From contig JAUCBJ010007099.1 in assembly GCA_032718475.1 (NCBI GenBank), positions 1 through 47,399 on the forward strand: a stretch of 47,399 bases of DNA, in the 5' to 3' direction. Below are positions 1 through 22,283 of this stretch, in pieces. The translations under genes and the position numbers were made by a program. This DNA is from Nemertoderma westbladi (lineage: Eukaryota > Animalia > Xenacoelomorpha). Position 1 is the stretch's first letter; every line of letters begins with the position of its first letter. Under the pieces are notes generated by a model. It searched no databases. It saw only the letters and a program-made list of their open reading frames with translations, and was not told the DNA's origin.

Positions 1-2055
1 TAACTGTTGAACAGTCCCTTCTAACTCTCGGACCTGTTGAGAGGAGCGTGTTTGATTCTCCTCCATCTTTCTGAGGAGAATGTCCATCCCCCGCCGTCTC
101 TCGTCCACCCAATCAACCGCCGAAACGGGATCCGCCAACGTCGTAGCGGGCGGACGAGGGACAACGGGCGACAAATCTGGAATATTTCGCTCGGGGTCCA
201 GGACCTGAACTGTCTCCTGGGCAGTTCTACTGGGCACAGGTAGCTTAGTGCTAGGTAGAGGGAATTTAGAAGTAGCTTCAGGGAGCACAGGTGTGTCTAT
301 CACCGAAGGGGTGATTTCAAGAACAGGCCTAATTATTTCAGGCTCATCTACTATAGTAGGGAGTCTTTCTATTGTAATTATTTGGTCTGTGGGCTCTGTA
401 CTACCTAAGTTGGTGTTATTTAGTTGCCTTCTAACAGCTGGAGGCAAATCAGGCAATTTCTGACGGTGGAATGTTCTTTTACGTCTGCTTAGGCGAGGTC
501 GATTTCCTCCGCCTTCGGTGTCGGTGGTATCGCCTTCCTCAGATGATGTATACCCCTGTCTCTTGGGAGTAGATCGACTCATCATCTGCATATTGCTCGC
601 TGTTAACTGTTTATTGAAGTTGTCTTGCTTCTCTTGAAGAATTTCCAACTCTAGTTGGGTTGTTTCTTCAGCCGCTTTCCGTTCTGCTTCTGCCACTTTT
701 GCCTCTGCCGCTGCCTCTGCCTCTGCCGCTGCCTCTGCCGCTTTTGCCTCTGCCGCTGCCTCTGCCGCTTTTGCCTTAGCCGCTGCCTCTGCCGCTTTTG
801 CCTTGGCCGCTACCTCTGCCGCCTTTGCCTTGGCCGCTGCCGCCTTTCTTTCTGCTTCTGCAGCTACCACTGCTGCTTTCTTTCTGTCTTCTATGCGTTT
901 TTTCTTTACTTGTTCTTCCCTTTCTCTAGCGATGCGGAGTTGTTCATCGAATTTAGCTTGGTTCGCCGCTAACCTATCCACATCAATCGCATCTAACACA
1001 AGTTTGGCTCCTTCGCTATTAGGGCTAAGTCCCTCTAGCCTTCTCCTCAACTCTTCATCTCCCACAAAACGCTGATAGTCTGACAGATAGATATCAATGG
1101 CATCCTTCTTATGCGGTTTCTCTGCCGTCGCTTCACTTTCCACTTGGGAAAAAGTAGCGTCTGTTGATTCTCCATGGGTTGAGCGCTCCTCCAACTGAGC
1201 CTTCCACTGAGCTGCTCCTTGAACCTGGCGACTCACCCGTTGAAACCAAGTCTTTACGGCAACTTGCAACGACGTGTCTTGTCTTCTTTTAGAAGCCTCC
1301 TCAAAGGCGGATAAGATTAGCCTAATTCGTAGAACTCTTTCTCTAACTTGATAAAGCAGCGATCCCTGCTCTTGAGGTCCTTGAGGTTGTTTAAACAGTT
1401 GTCTTTCTACTCGCTCCATAGAGCTGAAGAATCCCTGGGCGTATCCGGCTGCGGACCTCTTCCATACAGCTGGATCGATGGTTTCCTTGGCTACTCCCAT
1501 CCGGTGTATGTCTTCCCAGGCAGCTTCTGATAAATCAAACGGGAGTCCGGGTCCGGGGAAGTTCCATTGCGACTCGACAATAGACTTCAGTTCTTCACTA
1601 GTGTATCCCGCGTAGCTATCTCTAGTTGACCGTTGACTTCTCGCCCAATCGATCTGGTGTTCTTCCACCGCGATCAATAACCCAGCGAGCACGGCTGCAG
1701 GAAGGATGAGAAGGGGATCCGTATAAACCGCATCCGTCATCTCTGCTCCGCTCTCGGGTGTCAGCTCTACAGTATCCTCACTACTGGAGCTGCTGGGCCG
1801 CTGAGGAATAAGTTCTTGACTAGTGGGTTGTTGCTGTTCCGCTGCCTTTTGGTCCCGCTTGACCTGAGCTCGAGTGCCTATGATAGACCTACGATGTTGG
1901 ACCAGCCTAGGTTCTGTTATTACTACTGGAGGGATGACCTTCCTCACAGTGGGAGGTGAACTGGATTTACGACCAGACGGTTGTACGTCTCTATCTGAGT
2001 CGCAGATAGTTACATCTAATAAACTGTCTGACAGGTTCTGCTTAGTATCAGACAT
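1..2055 (-). CDS. BEL/Pao Gag N-terminal part (open to the window edge, so absent from the ORF track)
   Basis: ATG at 2055 gives MSDTKQNLSDSLLDVTICDSDR..., homologous to MSDTQQNLSDSLIDTTICDSDR of 13379..17233. Same frame at base 1 (...QVRELEGTVQQL). Contains an expanded AEAKAA-type repeat at about 690-850. Confidence 0.85.
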   Translation of the reverse strand, partial: MSDTKQNLSDSLLDVTICDSDRDVQPSGRKSSSPPTVRKVIPPVVITEPRLVQHRRSIIGTRAQVKRDQKAAEQQQPTSQELIPQRPSSSSSEDTVELTPESGAEMTDAVYTDPLLILPAAVLAGLLIAVEEHQIDWARSQRSTRDSYAGYTSEELKSIVESQWNFPGPGLPFDLSEAAWEDIHRMGVAKETIDPAVWKRSAAGYAQGFFSSMERVERQLFKQPQGPQEQGSLLYQVRERVLRIRLILSAFEEASKRRQDTSLQVAVKTWFQRVSRQVQGAAQWKAQLEERSTHGESTDATFSQVESEATAEKPHKKDAIDIYLSDYQRFVGDEELRRRLEGLSPNSEGAKLVLDAIDVDRLAANQAKFDEQLRIAREREEQVKKKRIEDRKKAAVVAAEAERKAAAAKAKAAEVAAKAKAAEAAAKAKAAEAAAEAKAAEAAAEAEAAAEAKVAEAERKAAEETTQLELEILQEKQDNFNKQLTASNMQMMSRSTPKRQGYTSSEEGDTTDTEGGGNRPRLSRRKRTFHRQKLPDLPPAVRRQLNNTNLGSTEPTDQIITIERLPTIVDEPEIIRPVLEITPSVIDTPVLPEATSKFPLPSTKLPVPSRTAQETVQVLDPERNIPDLSPVVPRPPATTLADPVSAVDWVDERRRGMDILLRKMEENQTRSSQQVRELEGTVQQL

Positions 2056-4255
2056 GACTAGGTATGTACAGTTGAATGCCTACTGCTATATTACAGTCTA
2101 AGCAAGTCTAGTAACTCAGTATGAACTGCTAGCCTAGTAATTAATTACCGTTACTGCTACTCAGTGTAGCGTGATATATATATAATATATTAGAATACCG
2201 GTATACTTATAGTATATATAACTATATAAGTATTATTACAGACTAGGTTTATCACAGAATACCGGTATAATTTTAGCACAAATATATATAAATATATAAT
2301 AGGCCTATCGGAATACCGGTATACAGCTTACAGTTTGTAGGATATATAATTCTGAAATAGAATTAATTACAAGTACCGGTATAATTTCAGCCTAGATTTA
2401 TAGAAATAAAGATAATAGGCCTATCGTAAATACCGGTATATCAATTATTTCAAATAATTGAATTTCTGTTACTTTAGGGTTACTTTGTTACTTTACTTAC
2501 TTTATTACCGTTATTTGAGCAGTAATCCAACTGATATTGAGACCTAATTGTTATATGGTAGGCCTACTATTTATAAATCGTTAGATTTGATTTATAATTT
2601 ATATATACCCGTTTTAATGGGTTTTGTCAATGTTTGAAATAAATGTTATTATTTCTGGGGGTAATCACTACACAAAGCGGTGCGCTTTCAGTGAAGTGTT
2701 ACATATAGGACACTAAAACAAATAATTCTAATTTACCTAAGTTACTTAATACTACAAATTACGTACAATTCGGGTGAGATTACAATCTCTAAATAAACAC
2801 AAAAATTTACGAAAACACAAATACGAATTTTTAGGGTAATTTTACAAGAAGTCTACAAACCAGCCTAACAAAGGGTTAGATAACCGGTTATTACAACGGA
2901 CAGGGTACTACGGTATTTGAAATAATAAGTAGTAGTAAATACACTGCGTTGTCTAGATAGGAAAATACCACCGCCTGACGACCTATAGCCGTATCGCTAT
3001 AGGTTCTACGTTATGTATCACGGAGTGTTCCTACCTAGAAGTTAATAGAGCTAATCGAATGTGCCTATCAACCACTTTACAACACAGATATAATGCCTAC
3101 ACTAATTACTTCCGGAAAGCACTGTACACTAAACCCTAAATTAGGTACGAGTACTTGTACAACAAATAATCAGTAGTTAAATATACTTGAACAGCTAAAA
3201 GAACCACGGCATCTGCTGGAGTGACCGATGCACAAAATCACCAGTCTTTACCTACGCCGAGCAGCCCGTATAGTACCGAGGTTAATTTAACTATAGCGGT
3301 ATGTATAACAAACACAATTACTGTAGGAACAAACTTGGGGAATGAATGTTGCGGATAATCGCATAAACTCTGAATAATAAATATTACGCTACGCGTACAA
3401 ACTACTCAAACAAAATACAGACCGAACACTGACAGACTACTATCAAGCCTAAACAAACTACGGTATATGCAGACTCCGAAATGATTAGGGAGTATGCGCT
3501 CTAACCCAGTAGTGCGACTTATTCTTTAGTTGGGGGATTACCTTACAGCGTTCGCTGCCCCTACTGCCTAATCGTACTTAATCGGACAGATGATCTACAC
3601 ACGCGGCAATCCGTTCAGACCTAATAACAGCCAGACAACTATCCAGCCTACAAATTATCTAAATAAAATTATACGCTACCCATACAGACTTACACAAACA
3701 AAGTACAGACTAAACGATGGCAGACCACTCTCAAGCCTAAATAAACCACAGGACATGCAGACTCCGAAATGATTAGGGAGTATGCGCTCTAACCCAGTAG
3801 TGCGACTTATTCTTTAGTTGGGGGATTACCTTACAGCGTTCGCTGCCCCTACTGCCTAATCGTACTTAATCGGACAAGTGCTCTACACACACTGCAATTC
3901 GTTCGGAGCTAACAGCAATCAGACAACAGCTCAGCCTACAAATTGTCTGTCCAATCTGATCAGGTTTACACGCCTTCTGTTCAATACTGGCCTACAAACA
4001 AATAAAACTTGACAGAAATAAGTAAAAATCTCAATAAAAAACCAGGGCTGCAGTCCCTGATAAATTATTAAGGCCTACTGGTATATAATAATCAAAATCG
4101 AATAATACTGCTATACCTGTACTGCTGTAGGTACCGGTCCGGGTGGTTAGGTAGTCAGGCCTACTGGTACCGGTTCTGGCAGTTGGGCCTACTGACCTAC
4201 AGATGTACCGGTTGACCGGTACTTTCAACTTTATTGCTTACTGCAACAAAGAAGC

Positions 4256-4267
4256 TATATCCTTTAA
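4256..4267 (-). promoter_or_regulatory. Non-tRNA primer-binding site of copy A (TTAAAGGATATA), complementary to LTR 4988-4999
   Basis: Abuts the LTR end; 12/12 reverse complement of TATATCCTTTAA in its own LTR; no TGG start. Confidence 0.75.
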
Positions 4268-5389
4268 TGTTCGCGCTTTCAGACCTTTGGCAGTTTAACC
4301 CACCAAATTAAGATGTCTTCTAGATATTAAATCTGTTTTTTAGTCTATGACAAGTATTTGATTCACTACACTAGTCGAAACCAATCCGTGCGCGACCATT
4401 CACCCGCTGGATATTCCCGGGAGATTGGGTTCGACGGTTTAATTTTATTGCTATGTAAGCCTAATGTATTATTCGACTGACAGTACTATATAATCTCTGA
4501 CAATATTATTCACCTTCGGTAATATTAACAGTTCCTTTAGGACGTGGCGCTTTATCTATATAAACAGAGTTATGACTTAAACTACTCACAACGATATGGC
4601 TTAATTATAATTCACATATATGGCGCATTCTTTAGGAATTGCTTCTTTAACAGACTCACTCATACACAATGCTGCACAATACTGCACACTAATCTGCCAA
4701 TCTTCACTGATTTTAGTCACATATAAAAGGAACACAGGCTGACTCATGTAGGGTCTATCAAATAACATTAGATTCACTTCAAACCACTTTAACACAAGTC
4801 ACAATCGTTATTGGTAACCTTTCTCTCTTACCTTCGGTATATCAAGAATATTGGGTTGCGGGGTTATTTATCGTTATTCCAAATATAATAATTCATCAAC
4901 CATATTATGAAGAACTGACAGTAAATAGCAGTATAAAACAACAACTGAACAGTTAGGTAGATCGGTACGTCAGTACCGGTATGTCAGTTAAAGGATATAT
5001 GCCCTTTATAATTAAACCTACCAGTGTACGACTAAAAAACAGTACAGCACAAAATACTTCCAAGCCGTTCTTTCTTTGGCTCAAGACTGAATGTCAACAC
5101 TGCACATAGGCATTGCGTCATTTCTCGGAAATTTTCTGTACAAGGAGCCACAAAAACGCTCTCATTGGCTGACTGAACTGAGAGACGCCGTAGAACAAAG
5201 GAAATCAACACGTATGAATGTCAGCTGTTAACCGTAGTCATAGTAACTACTGTTCAAGAGTAGCTATCACCCCTTTGCGTCACGAATTGCCATAGAATCA
5301 TAAAATATGCCTTTCACAGTACACATACGGAGGAAATAGGTCTTAGATCCTCTAAAAACACCGATACAGCAATAATACGGTCTCTTACA
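4268..5389 (-). repeat. 5' LTR of BEL copy A (about 1.12 kb)
   Basis: 3' end ...AAAGCGCGAACA matches the copy B LTR end. 5' end placed at TGTAAGAGAC (5389) by the TG rule only; the partner LTR is outside the window. Confidence 0.7.
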
Positions 5390-5777
5390 CTTATTAAATC
5401 AACTACAGAGTATTTTAATGTAAAAGATAATAAAAATAACGGGGCAATTCAGCAAAGGCTTTTACAAATTCCATCGAATTGCTAACACCAAAAAACCGGT
5501 GTAAATCAAAAATAGAGATGTTACAATTAATATTTAATGAAATGTAATTTTCAAAAAACGTCTCAAAAAAAGTGCCAAAAGTAGGGTTAAAAAATGGTGC
5601 TATAACTCGAAAACTACCCAATATTTTTGAAAACGGTTTTCACTACTAGGAAGACAATAGATTTTTAGGAAAAGTCGTAAAATTTCAGATTCCAAACTGC
5701 GTTTGTTTTAGAATTATAACAAAAAAACCACGGGGGGGGGGTCATATTGACCCCCCCCCCGGGTTTAATAGGGTTAA
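5390..5777. mobile_element. piggyBac-like MITE terminus
   Basis: Ends ...TTTAATAGGG|TTAA (CCC terminus plus TTAA site), with a subterminal poly-G/TCATATTGA/poly-C hairpin at about 5732-5760. Confidence 0.5.
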
Positions 5778-8190
5778 TTGATTATTAAACATTGAGGCGG
5801 GATATTAATTCTCCGAGGTGGGAGTTTACTACTGTGTCTCAAAAAGATAATTATAATAATATAACGGGGATATTTATACTAAACTCATTTGCTGCAATGG
5901 ATTTTTAATTTATGTTATTTTGTTATTTTAGATGCATCGAGAGCGGTGAGGTGTTTGCCGTTATTGCTAACGACGGCAAACAGTCGGCAAGGCTGTTTAT
6001 GGACAGAAAGAAGTGTTGGCGTGGGGTCCCAAGTCCACATCATAGACCCTGTTCTCATAGGGAAAGAGAACTCCGACCTCGTTGTTGTCGGGGTAGACGA
6101 TATGCTGGTACTGGTAATCCAGCCGTCCAATGTGGAGAAGTCGGCCGTTACTTGGGACCCCGAGTCGACAGCGATGGGTTCCTTCGCTATGAGGGCGACA
6201 GCCCTCAACCTGAACCGAATCAAGGTGGTGGAGGATGTCTGTGGCGGGGCAGTACGGGAGGGACTGTCCCTGTCTGGTGTCCTGCCCCCCCAGTGAAGTG
6301 GGGATTCTATGTGGCTGTTAAGCCGGATTTCCTCCAGGCCATAGATCGGGTCACGTCGCGTCGCTTTCTAAACAGCTTTATAGGAGGTAGATGCCTCAGC
6401 CTGGATGAGGTCCCTCAGTGTCGCGAGTATATCCGGCAGATGTTAAGGGACCTTAACGTCTTGGAGGGGGTTCACTGGATGGTGTCTGGGTGGATGCGGC
6501 CAGCGTTGAAGGAGGGTGATGAACAAGTCACTCTTCCTTCCTACCACATATCATCCATCTGGCTGCTGGATTATCCAGTGGGCGTCTTCCCAGTTTGTCC
6601 TTTCAATGCTGGACACATATAACTCGTTACACATCCCATAGGGGCAGCAGGGCGCATAATTAATCAATTATGATCTTTTATTTGTTCTTTATTTTTCGTT
6701 TTTCATAGTCCATAGCTTTAAATTGTCCATAGGACCTGCTAGCGTGTTATTAATAATTAGTGATGTTTTTGGAATATTTATTTTGTTATTATAGTTTACT
6801 TAAAATGCGTTCTACCAAAATCATAATTAATGATCGTATTATATCAGGCCAAATAAGTATTAAATGTAGTTATATCACATTTTGTAACACGCCGAGACAG
6901 TTTAATGTTTTGGTTTGTAACGTGGGTAATCTGGTAAAACCCCTTAAGTCGATTTTTGGCCATTTTCAGGTTTTTGGTGATTCTGGTACCTTAGATTGAT
7001 ATCCACCTTCTGACAAAACCCCAGAAGTTAAACAGCGATAATAACGGAGAAAAACGCAAAATAAGATCCCGTCTAAATATCGCTTGATCTGTTAAAACCC
7101 CCTAAGTAGTAGTGAGTTTTGAAGTAGGTCTACGGTATTAGTATTAAATGAATAGGTTGCCTACTCAACACCTAACAGTATTTTTAAATAGCTGCAAATT
7201 TGTAATGCTTATTTTAACCTTTAAAAAAAATACAGTAGTTGCACAGATTCGGTCGTATCGTCCTTACCTTATGTTAGAGGCAATGAGTGCGGAAATTAAA
7301 AAAATCAAGGAGAGCTACTTGTAACAAGTACGAAAAATAGAAAAGAAGGTCTCACCACTCATTTCCAGTATAGACCCCTCAGAACTAACTCCTCTCTAAT
7401 GGTACTACTACTAAAGGCTACTTCTCTAAAGGAAACGATAATCAGAGAATATTCAGAGAAAGTATACTTGGAAATATTTACTACAGTTACTAGGCAACTG
7501 TATGTACTGTAGGCCTATGTTGTGTACCAGTGTAGGCAATTCCTTACATTATATTAATTGTTTTTTATTATATTAATTGTTTTTTAATGTATTATACAAA
7601 ATTCATGCGCTTATACATAAACTGAGTCACAGATCGTTGAAAATTCTTATAAAAATAATACAAAGATGGAAGTGATATTCTGAGAGTCAGAATTTATACT
7701 TTCGCTTTCAAACTTTTCTACTACAGTAGCTTATTATGTTGTGACAAAAACCGAAGCAAAGTTATAATATTCTTAGCAATTAGGAAAATAATATTTACTA
7801 AAATAAATTGTCATTTCTTCAATATAATTGTAATTATTTATTTAACAGCAACAAATTTTGTTTACCAGAGGGAATATAATTTGTCATAAACGAAACGTAC
7901 AGAACAGAAATGCCATACAATCAATGAATATATTACAATATAAGTAAGTAGGTATATCAGTAAATCTAGTGTATTAAAGTAAAAGTAATATCTTATATAG
8001 TTTTCTGTAAGGTATTAAATATATCAACATTGGAAGGCGTGTAGGATGGTAAAATACTATTAAATGTCCTTGTACAAACTCTTATAGAACTCTGTTTAGT
8101 CGAATTGGGGGTTCCATCATTAAGGTAACGTATTCTTAAGCCTATGAAAAATTTTATTACATAAATGTTTAAGAACATAGATATGGATGG

Positions 8191-8345
8191 ATGGATATTC
8201 CTTTCCACTGTATATTCAAATTATGTAAGAATGAAAACACTTCTGGTTATAAATTACTTAATTCTTCATTAGTCTGTCAGTGCGACAACTCAGCTGTACA
8301 GGACGAACATCATGTTCTACTTCACTGTCCTACAGTATGTCTCCA
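8191..8345 (+). pseudogene. Possible decayed non-LTR retrotransposon ORF2 C-terminal zinc knuckle
   Basis: VCQCDNSAVQDEHHVLLHCP resembles the C..C...EDExHxLxxC end motif of LINE ORF2. Confidence 0.35.
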
Positions 8346-8540
8346 CATATACGTAGTAAGTTTAGCATCCGGTAGTGCAATCAGATTTGCAGAGCCTTTT
8401 TGCCTTGTCGCCAGAACTTTGGTGCTTATTTAACTATTTAATTTTAGTAATTATCAATTAATATAATATATTACTACTAATACAGTATAATGTAAATGCA
8501 TTGGCAATAATGCCAAATGAATCATGAAAGTTGTCCTAAA

Positions 8541-10004
8541 CTAATCACTTGCTTCATCCTCATCGCTCGTTTCACTATCTTCGCCATTATCTTTGCCGCC
8601 TTCTTGTTCCTCGTCACAATTTATCAAAATATTGCTGATGTCATCAGGGAAATACTCATCCGACCACTGGATGGATCCATCATCATTCCAGCCATGATCT
8701 GTGAATCTATTTATCGCGATAATATTATTTAGTGATGCTTTCCAGAGGTAAGCAACATAGTTGGCTCGTTTTATATGGAGACTAAGTACTCTTTTACAAG
8801 GGGGCATTGTTGACAAGTCATGGCATCTATGTTTCTTTAGGCAGTGCAAATTAAAAATCTGGTATCTAAGCTCATTGACAGTCCAATGTTGTTCTTGTTT
8901 GGTTGAATACAGTGAGCCCACATACTTCTCTAACACCAATTCCGTCTCTGCAGTTAATATTATCGAGCTTCCAAGCTCGGCAAATATTCTTTTGAAGTTC
9001 GAACACTTTTCAGCTATCTTCCAACAGCGTTTTTTAGATTTTCCAAAGAATGATGAAACCTGATCGTCTCCTGTAAAAGCGTGTACTCCTAGTACGCAGT
9101 CTTTTAGTTCTGTTGGCATTTCGAAATCACTAATTCGCAATACCTTGCGGGATTTGTTCCTTCCATTATCTAAAATAACATTTTAATCGTGAGGATGTCG
9201 AAAAAAATGTACATTATTATGTAGATTATTTCTTTAGAATCATTACAAGAATCTACAAATTCAACAATATTTGTGATATTAATGTTTCCATGGCCAGTAA
9301 CTGAATCGACTTTCTGGTTGAAGTTATCAAACCACCAAAACGCACCTAAGTTTTGGTATTTTCGCTGTGGTCAGGAGCCGATTCCACCACTCTAATTCAG
9401 CTTCTGCTTCATCAGACTCAATCTCACAAACCAACTTATAATTAATACTATGACCTAAGTGAGACAGTATTCTAATTGGAGTTTTCATTCCTATCATGTT
9501 ATGCAAGCCAAGGCCAACAAGAAAATGTTTCAATGTTACGAGTTTGCCGTTAGAAATAGCTTTGATGACATCTGACATAAGGGAATTGATGTAAACCTTA
9601 CTTTTGTCGGCACTGAAATGGCCCTTTCTTTTTAATATTGAGTTAAAGAATGTCTCAAGTGATTTTGGGAATTCTTTCTGTATATCTTTCAGCGACTCAA
9701 TATTTGGTATATTACCACCACTTATGTTTTCATGTTTGTCTATAAATTCCACAACATCATCATGGATATATTCAGCCGCATTCCTAATTATTATATTCTT
9801 ATCTTTGGAACTGGCTACAAGTTCTGGAGTTTTCCCATCAACCTGTAAGAAGGTAATTCTATCCTTATACTCTTGTTGGATCCGCTTCTTTAATGTACTG
9901 CGATAACTTCTTTCATTGTCTGTACCAAAACCTGTTCCATATGCTTTGTGTAAATTCAGAATCGACAATATTCCTTCTCTGTGTATTATCTGGTTGTTGA
10001 CGAC
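8541..10004 (-). pseudogene. Academ-type DNA transposon 1, central and C-terminal part (XPG/FEN-like nuclease region)
   Basis: Motifs HAFTGDDQVSSFFGKSK, VNELRY, MPPC...HIKRANYVAYLWK, HGW and LHNMIG.K...LSHLGHSINY. Internally deleted and frameshifted. Confidence 0.7.
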
Positions 10005-11196
10005 TGTAAAAGCTTTTGTGGGATAACTGATACGTTTGCCTTTGCTGGCCAGTTCCCCCCCAGTCGCTAGAATACTCTCAAAGGGATTTATAACTAAAAT
10101 AGTGCAAGCTACCAGCTTATTGGCTGATGTGCTGTACGGAGATATCTGGGCTCAGTTTAATCGGCCAACTAGCTTAGAGAGGTTGCCTTAGCCTTGCTGT
10201 TCGTGTCGGCCAATAGAATTTGCGTAGGCGTTGATTTCAACCTATCCCAGCGCTACTGAACTGAATTTCCTATCTTTATGCTCATCCTCTGTGTTGAACG
10301 GGGCTTCGTGGAATAAGAGTTTTTGGTATACTCGTATAGTAGTAGTAGTCATATGATTTTATATGATTCTGTTGTTGTGTTCCCATTTTCGCCATAACAC
10401 CGGCTTTTTGGGAAGAACTCTAGTAAAACTGCTTAAATTATCGAAAGTATAAACTGTTACCTAACCTACCGATCAATCTAATCAATCAACCTACCTATTA
10501 ATCATATTGTTTGTACTGTTATTTACTGTCAGTTATTAATTGTACCTATTTGTTGATGGAAATATTGCTCTTTGGATAATACGGATAAATCACCCAAATT
10601 CCCAATTTTCTTGATACACTACAGGTTAGAGAGACCGGCTATACATAACAATTGCGATTTATATTAATGTGGTGTGTATTGAATCCAATGTTATTTAGCA
10701 GACCCTACGTGAGTCAATTGCTGCTCTCTTTATGTGTGATCAAATATACTGACGGTCGGCAGAATAGTGTGTATGATTGTGATTGGTAACAAAGTATTTC
10801 CTAAAGAATACGCTTTATACTTTAATCATAAGCGGTATCGTTGCGTTTTAGTATAAGTCTTAGTTCTGTTTAAATAGATAAAGCGCCACGTCCTAAAGGA
10901 ACTGTTAATATTTCCCGAAAGCCAATAATATCTGTCAGAGATTAATTATTAACGATCTATCGAATAATACAGTAGGTATACACTGCAACCTTACACTGCA
11001 ATAATACAATTTAAGCAACCGAATTCAGCCTCCCGGGTGTAGATCCATCGGGTGAATGATCGCGCATGGGCTGCCTTCGGCTAATGTTTTGCATATTAGC
11101 ATAAAATATTGTCGTATGCTAAAGGTGTTTTAATTAACTAAAAGACATATAAATTTTGGCGGGTTAAACTGCTAAAGGTCTTCAAAAGCGCGAACA
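10005..11196 (+). repeat. 5' LTR of copy B
   Basis: TGTAAAAGC...GCGCGAACA; direct repeat of 21092-22283 with only two substitutions found by eye (CCCGAAA/CCCTAAA; TTGCATA/TTGCGTA). Confidence 0.97.
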
Positions 11197-11209
11197 GTAA
11201 CAGTTTATA
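11197..11209 (+). promoter_or_regulatory. Non-tRNA primer-binding site of copy B (GTAACAGTTTATA), complementary to LTR 10448-10460
   Basis: Starts at the first base after the LTR; 13/13 reverse complement of TATAAACTGTTAC. Confidence 0.8.
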
Positions 11210-11547
11210 ATCTTATTGCAGTAGGCAATAAGGTTGCAAAATACCGTAGTGACTGGTAAAACTGAACCGGTACTTCTGTAGGTCAGTAGGCCTAACTGTC
11301 ATCACCGGTACCGGTACTGCTGTACAAGTACATTTGGTATTATTCGATTTTGATTATTGTATACCAGTAGGCTGTTTAAGAGATTAGGGACTGTACACCC
11401 CTTGTTTCTTTTGGAGCTTACTTATTTCTGTCGGTTTTATTTCCTAGTAAGTTAATATTGAGCTGAAGACGTGTAAGTCTGCTCAGATTGTTCAAATAAT
11501 TGTAGGCTGAACTGCTGTCTGACTGTGTTGAGTTTGGAGAGATTACG

Positions 11548-12010
11548 GCGTGTGTAGAGTTTGTCTGATCAAGTGCCGTTAGTAAGTTGGGGCAGCCATA
11601 TGCGGTAAGGTCAATCCCCTCTTAAAGAATAAGTCGTACTACCGTGTTAGAACGCATACTAACTAACTGTTTCAGAATCTGCATATACTGTAGTTTATTT
11701 AGGCTTGATCGTAGTCTGCCAGTGTTTTAGCCTGTGTTTGTTTGTGTGGTCTGTTCGGGTACCGTAATAGTTATTACTCAAATATTTTGTAGGCTGGATT
11801 GTTGTCTAGCTATTCTTAGGCCTGAAGGGATTGCTGCGTGTGTAGAGTTTGTCTGATCAAGTGCCGTTAGTAAGTTGGGGCAGCCATATGCTGTAAGGTC
11901 AATCCCCTCTTAAAGAATAAGTCGTACTACCGTGTTAGAACGCATACTAACTAACAGTTTCAGAATCTGCACATACTGTAGTTTGTTTAGGCTTGATAGT
12001 AGTCTGCCAG
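11548..12010 (+). repeat. Duplicated block with 288-bp period in the 5' leader
   Basis: GCGTGTGTAGAGTTTGTCTGATC... starts at 11548 and 11836; the same 288-bp period occurs in copy A (3467 and 3755). Confidence 0.9.
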
Positions 12011-13378
12011 CGTTTAGTTTGTATTTTGTTTGAGTATTCTGTACGGGTAGCGTAATATTTATTATTCAGAGTTTATGCGATTATTCGCAACATTCATGTC
12101 CCCAAGTTTATTCCTACAGTAATTGTGCTTGTTATACATACCGTTATAGTTAAATTAACTCCGGTACTACACGGGCTGCTTGGCGTAGGACATGACTGGT
12201 GACTTTGTGCTCTAGTCACTCCAGCAGATGCCGTGGTTCTTTTAACTGTTCAAGTATATTTAACTACTGATTATTTGTTATACCGGTACTTGTACCTAAT
12301 TTAGGGTTTAGTGTACAGTGCTTTCCGAAGTGATTAGTGTAGGCAGTATATTTGTGTTGTAAAGTGGTTGATAGGCACATTCGTTAGCTCTATTAGCTTC
12401 TGGGTAGGAACAATCCGTGATACATAACGTAGTACCTATAGCGATACGGTTATAGGTCGTCAGGCGGTGGTATTTTTCCTATCTGGACAGTACAATATAT
12501 TTACTACTACTTATTATTTCAAATACCGTAGTACCCTGTCCGTTGTAATAACCAGAATTCTAACCCTTTGTTAGGCTGGTTTGTAGACTTCCTGTAAAAT
12601 TACCCTAAAAATTTCGTACGTAATATTTTTGTTGTGTTTAATTAGAGAATTAATCTCACCCGTATCGTAAGTAATTTGTAGTATTAAGTAACTTAGGTAA
12701 ATTAGAATTATCAGTTTTAGTGTCAAATAAATAGCACTTCACTGAGAGCGTTCAGCTTCTGTGTAGTGACTCCCCCAGAAATAATAACATTTATTTCAAA
12801 TATTGACACAACCCATTTTAAAAGGGTATATATATATTATAAATCAACTCCAACGATTTATAAATAGTAAGCCTGCCATACGACAACTAGGTCTCAATAT
12901 CAGTTGGACTACTGCTTAAATAACGGTAACAAAGTAAGTTAAAGTAACCAAGTAGCCCTAAAATATTCAGAGATTCAATTATTCTAAAATAATTGACATA
13001 CCGGTACTCACTATAGGCTTATTATATTTATCTCTATAAATTTGAGCTGAAATCATACCGGTACTCTGTAATTAATTCTAGTTCATAATTATACTTACAT
13101 GCTGTAAGTGTAAGCTGTATACCGGTATTCATTATAGGCCTACTATATATATATATATATATTTGTGCTAAAATTATATACCGGTACTCTGTGACAAATC
13201 TAGTCTGTAATAATACTTATATATTATAAGCATACCGGTATTCTAATATATTGTGTATATATCACGTTACACCGAGTAACGGTACCGGTAATAAATCGCT
13301 AGGCTTGCGGTCATACTGAATTACTAGACTTGCTTTAACTGAAACTATAGTAGTAGACATTCAACTGTATAACTAAAC

Positions 13379-16300
13379 ATGTCTGACACTCAGCAAAACC
13401 TGTCAGACAGTCTGATCGATACAACTATTTGTGATTCAGATAGGAGTGTGGAGCGAATAAGAAAGGAGTTCGGCTCACCTCCTACTGTAAAAAAGGTCAT
13501 CCCTCCAGTAGTATCAGACCCTAGGCTAGTCCACCATAGGTCCATCATAGGCACTCGGGCACAGGTAAAACGGGACCAAGAGGCAGTTGTCCTATCGCAG
13601 CAACATCTTGGTCAAGAACCTACTTCCCAGCGACCCGATAGCTCCAGCAGTTCGGATACTGTAGAGTTGACTCCCGAACATGGAGTGCAGATGGCTGATA
13701 CAGTCTACTCGGACCCCCTTCTTACTCTTCCTGCTGCAGTGCTAACTACTATATTCATTGCGGTGGAAGAACATCAAGCCGACTGGGCGAAGAATAAGCG
13801 AGCGACCCAAGATAATTACGCGGGATACGCCAGGGAAGAATTGATATCTATTGTTGAATCACAATGGAACTTTCCCGGACTCGGACTCCCGTTGGACCTG
13901 TCCGAGGCTACTTGGGAAGATATACACAGGATGGGAGTGGCACAAGATACAATGGATCCAGCTGTTTGGAAGAGGTCGGCATCAGGATATGTGCAGGGAT
14001 TCTTCGGCTCCTTGGACCGATTGGAAGAACAACTGTTTCGACAACGTCAAGGACCTCAAGAGCAGGAAGAGTTACTATATCAAATACGCGAAAGAACCCT
14101 ACGCATACGACTAATCCTCTCAGCCTTTGAGGAAACTTCCAAAAGAAGACAAGACACGTCGCTGCAGGTTGCTGTCAAAACTTGGTTACATCGGGTAGAT
14201 CTCAAAGTCCAGGAAACGGCCCAGTGGAAATCCCAGCTGGCTGAGAGATCAACCTATGAAGAACCAACTGATGTCACCGAACCAACTGATGTCACCCTTT
14301 CTCAAGCGAAAAGCGAAGAGGCCGCCGAGGAACCGCGAACTAGAGACGCTATCGACATTTATTTGTCCGACTATCAGCGATTCCTAGGAGACGAAGAGTT
14401 GAGGAGACGGCTGTCTGGACTTTCCCCTAATAGTGAAGGAACCAAGCTTGTGTTGGACTCAATCGATGCCGAAATGTTAGCTGCAAACCAAGCTGAATGT
14501 GATGAAAAACTCCGCCTCACTAGAGTCCGAGAAGAACAAATAAAGAAAAGAAGGATAGAGGAACAAAAGGCGGCGGCTATGGCGGCGGCTATAGCAGATG
14601 CAGAAGCAGAAAGAAAAGCAGCAAAGGCGGTGGCAAAGGCAGTGGCAGAAGCAGAAAGGAGAGCATCTGAGCAGACTACCCAACTGGAGTTGGAGAATCT
14701 ACAAGAGACACAAGACAGTATAAATAAACAGTTTACTGCTAATCAAATGCAGATGATGAGAAAATCTACTCCCAAGCGCCAGGGATACACATCCTCGGAG
14801 GAAGGCGATACTACTGATCCTGAAGGCGGAGGAAATAGATCTCATCTAAGTAGGCGTAGAAAAACATATTACCGTCGCAAATTGCCTGATTTGCCCCCAG
14901 CTGCTAAAAGACAGCTAACTAGCACAGATTTAGGTAGTGCAGAACCCATAGAACAATTTATCCAGGTCAAAAGACTCCCTACTATAGTCGATGAACCTGA
15001 AATAATTACGCCTGTAGTTCCCAAAGTCACTTCTGTGCTAGAGACCCCTACACTTCCAGAGCTTAACTCTAAATTCCCTTTACATAGCACTACACTGCCT
15101 GTACCCGGTGGAACAGTCCATGCAAATACCCCTGTCCAGATAGCAGAGAGAGAAATCAATAATTTGTCTCCCGTCGTCCCGCGTCAGCCCGCTACTATGT
15201 TGGCGACTCCCGCTTCGGCGGTTGAGTGGGTGGAAGAGGGACGGCGGGGGATGAATCTCCTGCTAGGACAGATGCAGGAGACTGTCCACCAACTTAAGGG
15301 AACAGTGAGGGAAGGTAGAGCAGAGTTGCAAGAAGTGCAGCAAAGTATCGCGCTAGAACGCGACAAATTAGTCAATATACAAAAAGGCATACCAATGCCC
15401 CCTGTAACATTGTGTCAACCCGTTAGGTCTGAAGTATTACATGCGCAAGGTGTGGAGCCTACACGCATCTATACTGCTAGTGAAGTTGAAACTCCTATAG
15501 CAAACCCTATTAAGGGTGATTATAGACCTGTTATTAATGATATTCCCTATAGACCTGATAATGATCCGAGAAATTTGTATACCGATAATTCGATATTAAA
15601 TAACACGATGGCCCAAGAAAGTTTTACGCGTCAGATGGCTAGAACAGAAGCCCGCCAAGCGGTCAAAGTGGGAGAGATCGTCAAATTCAATGGAGATGAG
15701 ATGAAATGGTCACCTTTCAACGAATATTACAAAGATAGCATACAGAATTCTGTACTATCTAACGGAGAGAAACTTAGATTCCTCATCAAGTGTTTGGAAG
15801 GACCTCCCAAGTTAATGGCGTTAAAGTTTATTGGACATCCAGATGGATTAAGACAAGTTTGGGATACATTAAACATCAGGTATGGTAACAAGGATAACAT
15901 AGCTAAGTATTTGTATGCAAAATTAGTAGCCCCCCGACACTTCCTTAGTAGTGGGATTATAGAGTTTTCCGATGAAATTCAAGAGATCTGTAGACAACTG
16001 GACTGGTTAGGTAAGTCGCACGAATACCAGAGTTCCATGGTTATTGGAGCCGTAGTCTCTACTTTACCAAAGGGTGGAGTATGTACACGCTGGGACAAGA
16101 AAGTGTTGTACATGAATGAACAACAACGACGAAGTCCAACCATGGCTGATCTCATGTCTTTCTTAGATGGTGAAGTCAAACTACAACTCATCAAGCAGTC
16201 CAGAGAGAAAACATCGGAAAATAAGGTAAGTGAGAAACCCACTTCTAGGAGAAGAGTAACACCGGTGTGTTACACTGACGACGGCGAAAGCCAAGCTTCC

Positions 16301-17233
16301 CAAGAAGAGGACAGCGGGAAAGATACAGATCGATCGTATTATGTTGACAAAACCTCCAAGGACGTAAGTAAATACAAAGCTCGAACCAATAATAGGAGAG
16401 AACAAGTTACTAAGACCCCTCCTCAGTCTCCTAGCAGAATGCGCGGAAGAAAGCCCGAAGAAAGAACGAGAGTGCATCAGACTACCCAGGGTAAAGTAAG
16501 TAACATAAAACCTAACTGTGCGCTGTGTGACGGGACCCACCGTTTGAGTGCGTGTGCGGAATTTCTAAAGAAATCCCTTGTAGACAGACGTACAGTTGTG
16601 TGGGACAAGAGGTTATGTTATAATTGCCTCAGACCAGGACACCAACGGCGAACCTGTTACTCCGACATAAAGTGTGAAAAGTGTGGTGCGAAACATCACA
16701 TCTTGTTACATAGTGAGTTCGAACGAGACAAGCCGAGTCAGGTAAGTGAGTCCGAACTACATGTCCAATTCAGTGATGTAAACGACACTGATCAGGAGTC
16801 TGAGATGGAAGGATTTTATACTGACGAATTCTCCGACGCCAATGAATCCTGTTATCTAATAAACACCACGGTGTATCGAGCACTTACTTACGAAAAGGAT
16901 ATCAACGAGGAGTTCCCCCCTACTACTTTTACCAAACAATTATCTTGGAAAGCTCCAACTTCCAACGTAGGAATTAGAGAATTTCCTGTAGTTCAGGTAA
17001 GAGTTCACGGTATTAACAAAAGCTACATAGTGAACGCCCTACTTGACTCAGGCAGCACAGGAACATTCATAGATCAAGAGCTAGCCGAAGATATCTTTGC
17101 TGGACAACCCAAGTTCCGGACTAAATTGAATATGTCAGGAATTATGCAGGTTTGGAAATCTACCCTGATGGTAGATTACTATGTAGGTGTGTTGTCCACC
17201 CCCCAGGATAAGTTAGGAACGCAAGGTCAGTAA
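13379..17233 (+). CDS. gag: BEL/Pao Gag-aspartic protease polyprotein (1284 aa)
   Basis: DUF1759-like region (KFNGDEMKWSPF...LSNGEKLRFLIKCLEG); three BEL knuckles CALCDGTHRLSAC, CYNCLRPGHQRRTC and CEKCGAKHHILLH; protease motif ALLDSGS. Confidence 0.92.
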   Translation: MSDTQQNLSDSLIDTTICDSDRSVERIRKEFGSPPTVKKVIPPVVSDPRLVHHRSIIGTRAQVKRDQEAVVLSQQHLGQEPTSQRPDSSSSSDTVELTPEHGVQMADTVYSDPLLTLPAAVLTTIFIAVEEHQADWAKNKRATQDNYAGYAREELISIVESQWNFPGLGLPLDLSEATWEDIHRMGVAQDTMDPAVWKRSASGYVQGFFGSLDRLEEQLFRQRQGPQEQEELLYQIRERTLRIRLILSAFEETSKRRQDTSLQVAVKTWLHRVDLKVQETAQWKSQLAERSTYEEPTDVTEPTDVTLSQAKSEEAAEEPRTRDAIDIYLSDYQRFLGDEELRRRLSGLSPNSEGTKLVLDSIDAEMLAANQAECDEKLRLTRVREEQIKKRRIEEQKAAAMAAAIADAEAERKAAKAVAKAVAEAERRASEQTTQLELENLQETQDSINKQFTANQMQMMRKSTPKRQGYTSSEEGDTTDPEGGGNRSHLSRRRKTYYRRKLPDLPPAAKRQLTSTDLGSAEPIEQFIQVKRLPTIVDEPEIITPVVPKVTSVLETPTLPELNSKFPLHSTTLPVPGGTVHANTPVQIAEREINNLSPVVPRQPATMLATPASAVEWVEEGRRGMNLLLGQMQETVHQLKGTVREGRAELQEVQQSIALERDKLVNIQKGIPMPPVTLCQPVRSEVLHAQGVEPTRIYTASEVETPIANPIKGDYRPVINDIPYRPDNDPRNLYTDNSILNNTMAQESFTRQMARTEARQAVKVGEIVKFNGDEMKWSPFNEYYKDSIQNSVLSNGEKLRFLIKCLEGPPKLMALKFIGHPDGLRQVWDTLNIRYGNKDNIAKYLYAKLVAPRHFLSSGIIEFSDEIQEICRQLDWLGKSHEYQSSMVIGAVVSTLPKGGVCTRWDKKVLYMNEQQRRSPTMADLMSFLDGEVKLQLIKQSREKTSENKVSEKPTSRRRVTPVCYTDDGESQASQEEDSGKDTDRSYYVDKTSKDVSKYKARTNNRREQVTKTPPQSPSRMRGRKPEERTRVHQTTQGKVSNIKPNCALCDGTHRLSACAEFLKKSLVDRRTVVWDKRLCYNCLRPGHQRRTCYSDIKCEKCGAKHHILLHSEFERDKPSQVSESELHVQFSDVNDTDQESEMEGFYTDEFSDANESCYLINTTVYRALTYEKDINEEFPPTTFTKQLSWKAPTSNVGIREFPVVQVRVHGINKSYIVNALLDSGSTGTFIDQELAEDIFAGQPKFRTKLNMSGIMQVWKSTLMVDYYVGVLSTPQDKLGTQGQ

Positions 17234-17235
17234 AA

Positions 17236-17940
17236 ATGGTGGCTATAAAGAACTTCGCTACTACCCAAGCAGACCTTTACAATTGGGACGAGGATGAGAG
17301 CGTCCAACATCTTAAGATACCTCGATTCCGGACAGACTATCCTGGAGTGCAAATACTTATCGGCCAAAACGCGCACGAGGCGCTCGAAACATTAGAGAAA
17401 CGGCCTGCTCAACCACAACCACTACAAACCTATGCGGTAAGAACTAGAGTAGGTTGGTACTTCACTGGCCCTTCCCGTAGAACTCTCAAAGAGAGATTAC
17501 CTCAACAACAGGTATACCAAGTAAAGGGGGAAGTGGAGAGCAGTGATGTGGACGATCCAACTGAGGGAACACCATACTCCTCAGATAATGACGATATTAA
17601 CTCCAATGTAGATCAATGGAGACATTGCCTTGGGACGATTAATCCAGCCGACATCGCTTCCAGAGGAGCAACTCCTCAAGAACTGATAGATACTCCAGGC
17701 TGGTTAGGTGGATCCGACTTCTTAAGTAAAGAAGAAGAAGAATGGCCTCCTCATCTTACCACGGCGGAGGTTAGACAGGCCAAGGGAGCGGAGAAAGTAA
17801 CACAACCACTCAATCGCCCAGCTAGTCGTTTATGTTTACTGGAAAGAGACCGAAAACTGTCCGGAAACTATGGAAGGCAAGATACTCTTCCTACGACTAC
17901 TTCCCTAATCCGACAAATATCTAGGGACTCCATAACGTGA
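17236..17940 (+). pseudogene. pol remnant: protease C-terminal half fused to the RNase H C-terminus (RT, most of RNase H and integrase deleted)
   Basis: ILIGQN...AVRTRVGWYFTGP is followed by QWRHCLGTINPADIASRG...WLGGSDFL...WP. No RT YxDD and no integrase DDE. Lies in the -1 frame relative to gag. Confidence 0.85.
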
Positions 17941-19564
17941 TAGCATGTGGAGTGGGCGTGTGACTATATCATTTTATATTTGTTTTTATTTTATATTTAT
18001 GTATGTATTATTATGTAATTTTATTATAATCGTTTTCTTTAATTTTATTTAGTAGAATGTTATTTTAGTGATTATTTAGTAGATTAGTGCAATATATTAG
18101 TGTTTATTACGTATGTAATTACTTATAATATATATTTAGTGCGACGGCGAGAAATAATTATTTTTCTCTTTCCTTACTGTCCGTATCATATTATAAATAC
18201 GTGACTACAGTAAGATGAAATGTCCGTACTTATTAAAGTACAATAAAGCTCCTACTATATTCAAGTATTATTGGTAGGCAGAGTATTAGGAATGCAAAGT
18301 TCAGATCCTCGTGTCTCGGCTAAACCAAGCTCTGGGTAGACCTTGGAAACGACTTGCCTCTTCACACTGACATTGCTTCGTGCGATATTGCTCTTCTACC
18401 TTATAACAAATAATACATATAGTAGCGTGATGTCCCTCTAACAGTAGCGTCAATCGCAAATAAATCTGTTAAACTTTTGACCATCTGTAATTCTAGTCGA
18501 TTAAGATATCGTGGCACCCACCGATATACTTGAAAGACAAATTCTAGAATCAGTGGTTAACGTCCCCAGACAAGTTCTGGAATAAATTGGTGCCCATCCT
18601 AAATATTAATTTAATATTTGTTAAAATCTGTAAAATCCCGATCCTTTAAAATTTCTAGTCAATTAAGATATCGCAGTATTTACCGATATTCTTAGAAGGA
18701 CTATTTTATAGAATTAAGGATCCTAAGTCCCCAGATATGCTCTGGAATAAAATTTATGTCAATTTAACATCAAATAATAAAATTCACGGGAATAAATTTA
18801 AATTCATATTCAAATGAATTTCATAAATTGTCATTTTGTGCAATTTATAACATTCCCAAAATTCCAGTAATTAATAGATCATGGGAGCGGAGATTCATAT
18901 TGAGTGTATTAGAGTGCGAGAATCTCCAACATATAGTCAATAGCCGATAAAATTTATAAAATCATGCATAAAGAGGATATTGACAATTAAAGAATTACTA
19001 TTAAATAACATCCCAGATCTGTATGCATGAGAATTGCCCTAATTCTACCGCTAGTTTTCCATAATGTCACCATGGCAACACCCACGCTAGAATTAGAAGC
19101 AAGTTAAAAGGAACAATAAAAAGCTTACCCCATTGCGTAGCATAAGAGTATACATAACGCACTATTAGTATCCAAGGATACATAGTAATAACGTGACATT
19201 CTGGAAGACACTGACTAACGGACAAATGGCATGCATGTGTGCAGTAAGTAATGATTGTATGGAATTTGTGCGTTTATAGGTGAATGTTACTACTAAAGTG
19301 TGTTTACAGTAGCTAATCGCAATTGTAAAATAGCCCTAACTCTACCGAGATAACCTCAAGTGGATTCAAACTTTTGGGACGGACAGTGGTGGGACTTGTG
19401 CCGGTTATCGTTGTCGTGCTGTTGCTACATGTTGGCGTAAACACTGCGACAACGGTACATCGGCGCTGAGAAACCCACTGTCCGGGGGCAAAGCCTAGTA
19501 GGCAGCGACGCCCGCTTGCCTAAATATTAACTCATATTAATATTAATAAACTCAGATAGCAGAT

Positions 19565-21013
19565 ATGACGGAATTGATAGAAGATGACCTTGGTATTAGA
19601 GAGTGATATACTCTACCTTTGCAAGCGTTTGTGGATAGCTTGATACGCGGTGAAGCCGATCCGACTATTACGGAGGACGATGGTCGTTATATCGAACCGC
19701 CGATGTCCCAGGAACAACTTACGCGTGAAGCGGACTATAGAAAATTAACCGCTCGCTATACGCATTGTAATGGTACGTATATGGACTTCTTAACTACCGG
19801 CCATCCTATCGATTTACATGATACGGACGATGTAGACACCGAAAGGGAAATGGTTCTATTTAAATATCATACCCAGCGGCGTCGTAACGATAAACCGAGA
19901 ATAGATCACGAAAATTCTATTCGTAACAGACTGGGAAGACGAACCAATATGTCTAGAATCTGAGGAGATTCAGCCTATCGCGCTCGGAACAGCGACAACG
20001 ATTACATCCTAGAATGGTATCAAAGTCCACAGTGTCTCACTGCGTACGATTATCGCCATGCCAATTATGTTTCTAGACAACGTTGTCGGCTGTGCGCATC
20101 GAGAGACCATATTACGTCTATGGACACCAACGATCTTTGTTCCTATTTCCACGAGCAACCGTCGATGGAAATCTATTGTGCATATTGTCGGCTTAATAAT
20201 TTGCACATTTTTGCTGTCTGCCCCCAATTTATGACTCAATGCCATCATTGTCAATTAAAAGGACACGCCAGCTTTGATTGTCCCTTTAACCATGATTTAG
20301 AGAGCGTAGATGAAATGATTGTACTACGTTATATCAGAGCTTGGGAAGCGAACGCTGATTTACATTGTGATTCACGCCATCGCTATTATCCTGGACGCGC
20401 TTACGAAGGAGTTTATGCGTTCCATCCTTATTTGTTTGCCTCCGTCGAGCAGAAATCGCGCCTATCAAGTTATGAACTATTGAAGCGCGTTGGAGAATGT
20501 ATTTCAACCAAATATGTACGCAAATTTCTCAGGAGCATTAATCCGAGTGACATCCATTCTTATAACTTAATAAACTTTATCCGTCAAGACCCTGCCTATG
20601 GAGACTTATTCGTCAACTCACACCCTGAGTTACAAGAAGTATATCGACGGCCTTACGAGTACCGAGCCCGCGAACGCGAGTTGGAAAGAACCATTAAACC
20701 AAGGAAGTTTTTAACTACCTATGGTCCACCCACGGCCCTCGTGCAGACCACTCGTACAGGACCCGTAAGAGCGGCTGTCTTGAAACGAGCTCTCAAAGCC
20801 GTTAGACCCCTCTCCCCGGACGTTGATGTCAATCAACCCGGTACTTCGACCGGCGGATATACCGATCGCAATCCCATACCTTCTGATGCAATCATATTGC
20901 ACCCTTCACCCAGGAGTTATAGCCCTCCTCGTAAAGTGGCTCGCCCCAAAGAGAAAAGGACTCTTGCTAGCTTTAAAAAACTGCGTAAATGCCGTCCGTG
21001 CAAGAAAGACTAA
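19565..21013 (+). pseudogene. Accessory 3' ORF (about 482 codons) with Cys/His zinc knuckles, interrupted by two in-frame TGA
   Basis: ATG 19565, ORF 19619..19963 and ORF 20120..21013 share one frame. Stops only at 19604 and 19961. Motifs CRLCASRDH...C, CAYCRLNNLHIFAVC and CHHCQLKGHASFDC; basic C-terminus. Confidence 0.7.
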
Positions 21014-21091
21014 CTGTTTAGAGTATTTTTATATTTTAGAAACTGTGATTTTGTATATTTTATAGACTTAAATCCCATTTTCTGGGAGCGG

Positions 21092-22283
21092 TGTAAAAGC
21101 TTTTGTGGGATAACTGATACGTTTGCCTTTGCTGGCCAGTTCCCCCCCAGTCGCTAGAATACTCTCAAAGGGATTTATAACTAAAATAGTGCAAGCTACC
21201 AGCTTATTGGCTGATGTGCTGTACGGAGATATCTGGGCTCAGTTTAATCGGCCAACTAGCTTAGAGAGGTTGCCTTAGCCTTGCTGTTCGTGTCGGCCAA
21301 TAGAATTTGCGTAGGCGTTGATTTCAACCTATCCCAGCGCTACTGAACTGAATTTCCTATCTTTATGCTCATCCTCTGTGTTGAACGGGGCTTCGTGGAA
21401 TAAGAGTTTTTGGTATACTCGTATAGTAGTAGTAGTCATATGATTTTATATGATTCTGTTGTTGTGTTCCCATTTTCGCCATAACACCGGCTTTTTGGGA
21501 AGAACTCTAGTAAAACTGCTTAAATTATCGAAAGTATAAACTGTTACCTAACCTACCGATCAATCTAATCAATCAACCTACCTATTAATCATATTGTTTG
21601 TACTGTTATTTACTGTCAGTTATTAATTGTACCTATTTGTTGATGGAAATATTGCTCTTTGGATAATACGGATAAATCACCCAAATTCCCAATTTTCTTG
21701 ATACACTACAGGTTAGAGAGACCGGCTATACATAACAATTGCGATTTATATTAATGTGGTGTGTATTGAATCCAATGTTATTTAGCAGACCCTACGTGAG
21801 TCAATTGCTGCTCTCTTTATGTGTGATCAAATATACTGACGGTCGGCAGAATAGTGTGTATGATTGTGATTGGTAACAAAGTATTTCCTAAAGAATACGC
21901 TTTATACTTTAATCATAAGCGGTATCGTTGCGTTTTAGTATAAGTCTTAGTTCTGTTTAAATAGATAAAGCGCCACGTCCTAAAGGAACTGTTAATATTT
22001 CCCTAAAGCCAATAATATCTGTCAGAGATTAATTATTAACGATCTATCGAATAATACAGTAGGTATACACTGCAACCTTACACTGCAATAATACAATTTA
22101 AGCAACCGAATTCAGCCTCCCGGGTGTAGATCCATCGGGTGAATGATCGCGCATGGGCTGCCTTCGGCTAATGTTTTGCGTATTAGCATAAAATATTGTC
22201 GTATGCTAAAGGTGTTTTAATTAACTAAAAGACATATAAATTTTGGCGGGTTAAACTGCTAAAGGTCTTCAAAAGCGCGAACA
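21092..22283 (+). repeat. 3' LTR of copy B
   Basis: Direct repeat of 10005-11196, followed by TSD ACGAC. Confidence 0.97.

Follow-up and report, generated by a model that had tools for sequence, protein, structure and literature searches.

Pairing of the primer-binding site with the element's own LTR suggests self-priming in BEL/Pao retrotransposons of Nemertoderma westbladi

Two related retrotransposons with long terminal repeats (LTRs), both from the BEL/Pao superfamily, lie in a 47,399-nucleotide (nt) stretch of DNA from the xenacoelomorph Nemertoderma westbladi (GenBank assembly GCA_032718475.1, contig JAUCBJ010007099.1, positions 1 to 47,399; hereafter the window), element B on the plus strand and element A on the minus strand. 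In both, the primer-binding site (PBS), which starts at the first base after the 5' LTR, is the exact complement of a site within the element's own LTR, and the pairing is perfect in each element with different letters. We consider it likely that the primer for reverse transcription in elements of this type is a 12-13 nt stretch of the element's own RNA, in the manner of the fission yeast element Tf1, and not a host tRNA. The profile of the family Belpaoviridae by the International Committee on Taxonomy of Viruses (ICTV) defines these elements as tRNA-primed, their PBS being 18 nt long and matched to tRNA-Arg or tRNA-Gly of the host, and calls their replication poorly understood (PMC8742986); no such PBS is present in A or B.

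Results

The site after the LTR pairs with the LTR itself

The paired sites are as follows.

10448..10460, plus strand: candidate self-primer of element B, 13 nt, exact complement of 11197-11209
11197..11209, plus strand: PBS of element B, beginning at the first base 3' of the LTR, no TGG
4988..4999, minus strand: candidate self-primer of element A, 12 nt, exact complement of 4267-4256
4256..4267, minus strand: PBS of element A, pairing with 4999-4988

The LTR end of B (11196) is fixed by comparison with its second LTR; that of A (4268) was set by homology with B alone, the 3' LTR of A lying outside the window. From the end of the primer site to the end of the LTR there are 736 nt in B and 720 nt in A. 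The two sites differ by at least three substitutions and one indel, each of which, as read from the sequence, is mirrored in the PBS, and cross-pairing is small, as the B site pairs over 5 nt in the A LTR and the A site over 6 nt in the B LTR. This covariation within the window family is a comparison of two sequences, A and B. At its 3' end, the site in the LTR is paired to the base immediately following the LTR, which is the polarity of Tf1 (PMC7175516, in excerpt), and both elements thus have a Tf1-type PBS, adjoining the LTR end and complementary to the own 5' LTR over about 11 nt. In contrast, neither has the 18-nt PBS for a host tRNA 3' end that is expected of BEL/Pao, and the first TGG after the LTR is found at +58 in B and +224 in A. 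The base following the primer site is C in both elements, and the B site ends in AC.

An earlier reading of this DNA, made from the letters alone (the sequence-only reading), had described the exact pairing at these positions, the different letters in each copy, the matching distances and the lack of a TGG-type tRNA site, and all four were reproduced when recomputed. It had further placed the primer site where similarity between the A and B LTRs begins. This holds roughly, but similarity at the level of BLAST begins at 10510, about 50 nt past the primer site, and the likeness around the site is patchy (43% in LTR positions 421-480, 72% in 481-540).

Among dinucleotide shuffles of the LTR, none of 5000 reached the observed 13 nt for B and one of 5000 reached the observed 12 nt for A, and of the other leader positions in each element 0 of 1970 did so. 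The analytic expectation of an anchored match is 6e-5 for B and 3e-4 for A. The significance arises because the match is anchored to the base that directly follows the LTR: without such an anchor, each LTR should hold about 0.65 perfect inverted repeats of 13 nt, and an unrelated one does occur in A. The pairing is real and far beyond chance.

Element B is a young, non-autonomous BEL/Pao derivative

The remaining parts of the two elements are listed below.

10005-22283, plus strand: element B, 12.3 kb, LTR to LTR
10005..11196, plus strand: 5' LTR of B, 1192 nt, TG..CA ends
21092..22283, plus strand: 3' LTR of B, with a second copy of the primer site at 21535-21547
10000-10004 and 22284-22288: 5-bp target duplication of B
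21080..21091, plus strand: polypurine tract of B
13379..17233, plus strand: long gag open reading frame (ORF) of B, with BEL/Pao capsid domain, zinc knuckles and the first half of the protease
17212..17940, plus strand: second frame of B, with the C-terminal protease part followed by a short RNase H end
4268..5466, minus strand: 5' LTR of A, 1199 nt
1..2079, minus strand: N-terminal part of A gag, truncated by the window start before pol, 75-77% DNA identity to B

The two LTRs of B have 2 mismatches in 1192 nt (10005-11196 versus 21092-22283). Element B is a recent insertion and a young copy, and this small difference implies that its arrangement was functional recently. The first nine and last nine bases of the A LTR are identical to those of the B LTR, with about 70% identity across the right 60%.

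The assignment to BEL/Pao is carried by the proteins. The long ORF of B matches Pfam DUF1759 (E 5e-12), and all 23 of its 23 protein relatives are BEL/Pao polyproteins, with 21-41% identity. When these relatives were aligned by tblastn to the second-frame part of B, the matches were confined to 17347-17472 and 17581-17835, and the RNase H end amounts to about 60 residues that are 25-48% identical to BEL/Pao relatives. The same 23 relatives gave no tblastn match to a reverse transcriptase (RT) or an integrase in the window, and most of RNase H is absent from B. Element B thus has the related Gag/Pol, paired LTRs, polypurine tract and target-site duplication of a BEL/Pao element (A has one LTR in the window), lacks a complete pol with RT, RNase H and integrase, and is a non-autonomous derivative. 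Lacking RT and integrase, B must depend on a partner element for whatever RT and RNase H it uses.

The protease of B is divided between two overlapping frames (overlap 17212-17233), which may reflect either a programmed frameshift or a mutation. The leaders of B (11197-13378) and A (4267-2080) are unusually long, at about 2.2 kb, and both contain a 288-nt tandem duplication, and a palindromic ACCGGT motif recurs many times in them.

A spliced form places the RNA start in the left part of the LTR

Seven public runs, designated X1 and so on and available as assembled contigs, none of them on record as RNA, were considered, and four were compared (X1, X3, X4 and X5). The following features bear on transcription.

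10624..10626, plus strand: splice donor inside the LTR, exon end 10624, GT 10625-10626, the GT being conserved in A
19348..19350, plus strand: splice acceptor of a subgenomic RNA, AG 19348-19349, with a branch-point-like CTAAC just upstream
10584..10589, plus strand: candidate poly(A) signal, a putative GATAAA variant, with a motif at the matching place in A
19565..21013, plus strand: extra Cys/His-rich ORF, with in-frame stops at 19604 and 19961 in the B copy, reached by the spliced RNA (19350-21013)

Run X4 contains a joint from the LTR to 19348-19350, with the exon end at 10624, GT..AG borders and the exon start at 19350, at a depth of 1108, and this joint has a count of zero in X1, X3 and X5 (X1 counts are incomplete). 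The median depth of X4 relative to X1 falls from 15.8 per thousand at 10398-10621 to 1.0 per thousand at 10622-11181, a fall past 10622 that exceeds the threefold spread between two DNA runs, contig depth being a poor measure. This suggests that X4 is RNA. A twofold step in X4 depth, of 10398-10621 over the upstream LTR, is inside that threefold spread and was not used as evidence. Since the splice joint lies at 10624, an RNA of the family starts before about 10590, and a promoter near 10900 as the sole start, that is, a start in the right half of the LTR only, is ruled out by the joint. The probable end of this RNA is in the 3' LTR, short of position 620; other copies, seen at a loose end in run X1, read AATAAA just 5' of 10599. 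In run X5, which carries a second organism label, closely similar copies occur along the element, indicating a close relative or a shared family. Among the variants listed for the runs, none falls within the primer or the PBS, an observation that carries no weight as evidence.

The extra ORF has no Pfam match and no relative among 1.84 billion representatives, and contains weak look-alikes of zinc knuckles. It would be an accessory gene in an env-like position.

Predicted helices flank the PBS

Predicted structures around the PBS include the following.

11060..11065, plus strand: U5 arm, predicted to pair with 11188-11193 beside the PBS
11155..11176, plus strand: hairpin just 5' of the LTR end, 8/8 pairs kept between A and B, 2 via a one-sided change
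11210..11234, plus strand: hairpin directly 3' of the PBS, 9/9 pairs kept between A and B, with 1 two-sided and 2 one-sided changes
4229..4251, minus strand: hairpin 3' of the PBS in A
10433-10453 with 10812-10834 in B, and LTR positions 449-472 with 846-869 in A: predicted competing helix between the U3 end and U5

The predicted U5 helix of 6 bp is common to A and B and ends 3 nt before the LTR end. In the two hairpins flanking the PBS, 17 of 17 pairs are kept across the two sequences, five of them via changes (four one-sided, one two-sided), and the helix 3' of the PBS is predicted from these two sequences to be a local hairpin that does not pair back to the LTR. For an RNA starting at the primer site, the predicted probability of the primer-PBS helix is 0.92-0.94 at 37 C.

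Both folds also pair the U3 end and the first half of the primer with one U5 region, with letters that differ between the elements. This competing helix of the U3 end with LTR positions 805-870, although present in the fold of each element, has no energetic advantage over shuffles (89 and 77 of 500), and was set aside. A switch, or an end-to-end pairing, is a possible role for such a U3-end/U5 pairing in these models.

The signature recurs in distant BEL/Pao lineages

Relatives were sought by a scan of metagenome contigs, in which the best 80 of 563 matches gave 76 BEL/Pao loci. Fifty-one of these had some flank, and after removal of 6 near-duplicates and 10 loci without a leader, 35 were surveyed for a self-complement of at least 11 nt starting 0-5 nt after an ACA. 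Self-complementary sites of 11-16 nt were found at 10 of the 35 loci, two contiguous and eight split by an intron in the LTR, and a tRNA-type TGG site after the LTR at five, none of which scores above 9. As a control, 3306 ACA sites in coding regions gave 10 matches of at least 11 nt and none of at least 13 nt, so that about 0.85 would be expected by chance for the 280 leader sites, versus the 10 loci observed.

In L013, L018, L021, L054, L060, L061 and L063 the PBS complement, of up to 16 nt, exists only across a GT-AG intron of the LTR. These seven split cases have canonical donors (six GTAAGT) and pyrimidine-rich acceptors, and in L021 and L054 the downstream half of the split site is itself an AATAAA/ATTAAA hexamer. 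Among the split cases L042 is doubtful, as its best match overlaps its ATG. A second LTR fixes the LTR end in one of the ten self-complementary loci, L063. C follows the site in 9 of the 11 relative sites examined, and 9 of 11 end in AC. In several relatives a TATA-like box precedes the primer site, or its donor, by 50-145 nt, and a start exactly at the primer may therefore not be required. For L012, the LTR end first considered, at position 774 with a loop of 710 nt, gave way to a better ACA end at 447. The LTR ends of L066 and L076 are backed by a second LTR, yet these two loci showed no tRNA-type site and no self-complementary one.

In an integrase tree (42 of 44 rows, from a quick search), self-complementary and tRNA-type loci fall on opposite sides of one branch with a support of 98, and the protease and RNase H remnants of B score best against the self-complementary side. 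Grouping B gag with the self-complementary relatives is not rejected (p-AU, from the approximately unbiased test, 0.19). These sequences show that the signature is real in BEL/Pao, with a common origin with B neither shown nor rejected. A conserved 22-nt LTR motif had no match in viral or metagenome contigs, viral contigs scanned at the protein level yielded no relative, and no full-length relative of at least 2250 amino acids was found.

Discussion

How the elements might prime

We propose that transcription would start at or slightly before 10448 and that folding would bring the primer site to the PBS, with some 740 nt looped out between them and with help from the conserved helices to either side of the PBS. 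The RNase H of a partner element, as B encodes none, would then cut after 10460, and RT would extend the 3' end so created along U5 and R, which would end near 10600-10620, before jumping to the 3' LTR. In LTR elements generally, every cycle uses the primer as template for the PBS of the plus strand, and changes in the primer would thus be carried into the PBS, giving perfect pairing with different letters in A and B. Self-priming is supported by the pairing anchored at the LTR end, the A/B covariation, the lack of a TGG and the spliced form with its first exon ending at 10624. The sequence-only reading had put forward tRNA-independent self-priming with a start at or near 10448 (4999 in A); the splice form, the conserved helices flanking the PBS and the signature in distant relatives speak for the proposal, in which the start at these positions, the cleavage and the priming itself are predicted steps.

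A number of observations weigh against this proposal. The splice data fit starts at 10448, about 10478 or 10531 alike; they come from a single run, X4, which is labelled 'DNA?', next to incomplete counts for X1. In the fold predictions, 5-30 nt of extra upstream LTR cut the probability of the primer-PBS helix to 0.20-0.33 in B, and at least 20 nt cut it to 0.05 or less in A; these models offer at most a hint for a start at or near the site, and weigh against one much further upstream. Neither signal is seen at 20 of the 35 loci surveyed, many of them without a full LTR, and the survey rules were fixed after the sequences of the relatives had been viewed. The loop in the relatives, 23-275 nt, is far shorter than the 720-740 nt of A and B, and in the best trees B gag sits on a long branch outside the self-complementary relatives. 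Finally, TATAAA forms the first six bases of the B site and a conserved initiator-like TCAGTT lies at 10529, and either could place the start downstream.

An alternative built on such a downstream start would make the site part of U3, present at the 3' end of the RNA only, where a cut 3' copy primes or where end-to-end pairing circularises the genome for strand transfer. TATAAA, besides opening the B site, sits 11 nt before the A site, making 10448 a candidate TATA box, and the TCAGTT candidate initiator falls within 15 nt over which A and B do not differ; the onset of BLAST-level similarity at 10510 and a splice junction that needs only a start before about 10590 suit this alternative as well. 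However, the TATA-like hexamers of A and B are out of register with each other, a model of circularisation by itself leaves no primer and gives no reason for a match exactly at the first post-LTR base, and in the seven relatives whose site is split by an LTR intron the site must be in the transcribed 5' part. We regard this alternative as unlikely, if still the best of those considered.

A host tRNA half, a tRNA fragment or another small RNA might instead prime, with the LTR complement masking the PBS in a structural or regulatory role. The ICTV profile gives tRNA priming for the family (PMC8742986), and priming by half-tRNAs is described in several Ty1/copia lineages (PMC6317226, in excerpt). 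As TGG is missing from the first 57 nt (B) and 223 nt (A) past the LTR, and as the A and B sites differ and are AT-rich, so that two different RNAs would be needed, each also exactly matching an LTR site, we find this improbable. ARAGORN detected no tRNA in the window, and Rfam gave no match in 3800-13400. A chance match or a one-time inverted duplication without function, to which the occurrence of unanchored 13-mers in LTRs of such size and the letter-level comparison of only two family members might point, is very improbable given the anchored expectations, a pairing maintained through at least four differences and the same signature in distant lineages.

To return to self-priming, a wider joint reading would be that much of BEL/Pao in aquatic animals self-primes, by a contiguous or a splice-created primer, that the long-gag lineage of the window may be a separate second origin, and that the choice of start site could switch the helix. 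We would give belief and doubt equal weight here.

Comparison with known systems

In Tf1, the RNA's first 11 bases anneal to the PBS, and cleavage by RNase H takes place after base 11 (PMC7175516, in excerpt). Self-priming has been described for the Tf1/sushi group and Tcn1 and predicted for the plant TAR copia elements (PMC6317226, 10.1101/2022.12.06.519325, PMC4600332, PMC5341516 and PMC6934838, all in excerpt). According to these excerpts, A and B resemble Tf1/Tf2 of S. pombe, Tj1, Tosmo1-3 and the Tf1/sushi and Tcn1 Ty3/gypsy chromoviruses in having no tRNA PBS, a perfect 11-13 nt complement in the own 5' LTR and a PBS adjoining the LTR end. The predicted helices flanking the PBS of A and B are comparable to extra duplexes of the Tf1 structure (10.1101/2022.12.06.519325, in excerpt). 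Unlike Tf1, A and B belong to BEL/Pao by their gag and RNase H end and lack a Ty3/gypsy chromovirus Pol, and they have a loop of about 720-740 nt and a splice donor inside the LTR. For Tf1 the RNA 5'-end primer and its cleavage by RNase H have been demonstrated, whereas for A and B both are predicted. Self-priming of the TAR lineage of plant Ty1/copia elements (Houba, Osr-1) is likewise predicted from sequence, with at least 10 nt located 0-5 nt after the LTR (PMC6317226, in excerpt). It has thus been proposed in two superfamilies, and BEL/Pao would be the third.

The elements agree with the ICTV Belpaoviridae (PMC8742986) in a gag with DUF1759, LTRs of 1.2 kb that have TG..CA ends, a polypurine tract, a target duplication of 5 bp and overlapping gag/pol frames; B differs in its length of 12.3 kb, the lack of RT and integrase and the extra spliced ORF without known relatives. 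The sequence-only reading had taken BEL/Pao elements to be generally tRNA-primed, as the ICTV profile indeed states, and knew of no earlier description of self-priming among them, without excluding one. Our literature search likewise found no announcing paper, most subscription journals, Repbase Reports, GyDB and supplements being outside its coverage. The priming terms searched do not occur in the BEL/Pao surveys PMC3118150, PMC554778, PMC6238403 and PMC2774666, and the excerpts of PMC13524379, PMC3286476 and PMC3601003 contain nothing on BEL/Pao self-priming. Self-priming would here be an already known mechanism, acting in a superfamily for which it has apparently not been described.

If the proposal is true, a mechanism proven only in fission yeast Tf1 would extend to a third LTR superfamily, and self-priming to animals outside the Tf1/sushi group. 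Such elements would be independent of the host tRNA supply and would escape silencing by tRNA fragments directed at the PBS. Self-priming would also explain BEL/Pao copies that annotation tools score as having no PBS. The paired sites predict the exact RNA start, the cut site and the length of the strong-stop DNA (about 736 nt).

Other features of the window

A third, degraded BEL/Pao gag fragment lies at 41260-41910 (minus strand), with no LTR pair in the self-comparison of the window. Direct and inverted repeats of 130-180 nt at 29816-30148 and 33816-34289, about 4 kb apart, are possibly the ends of a DNA transposon. At 36860-38100 there is a 33-nt minisatellite of about 31 or more units, which is open in several frames.

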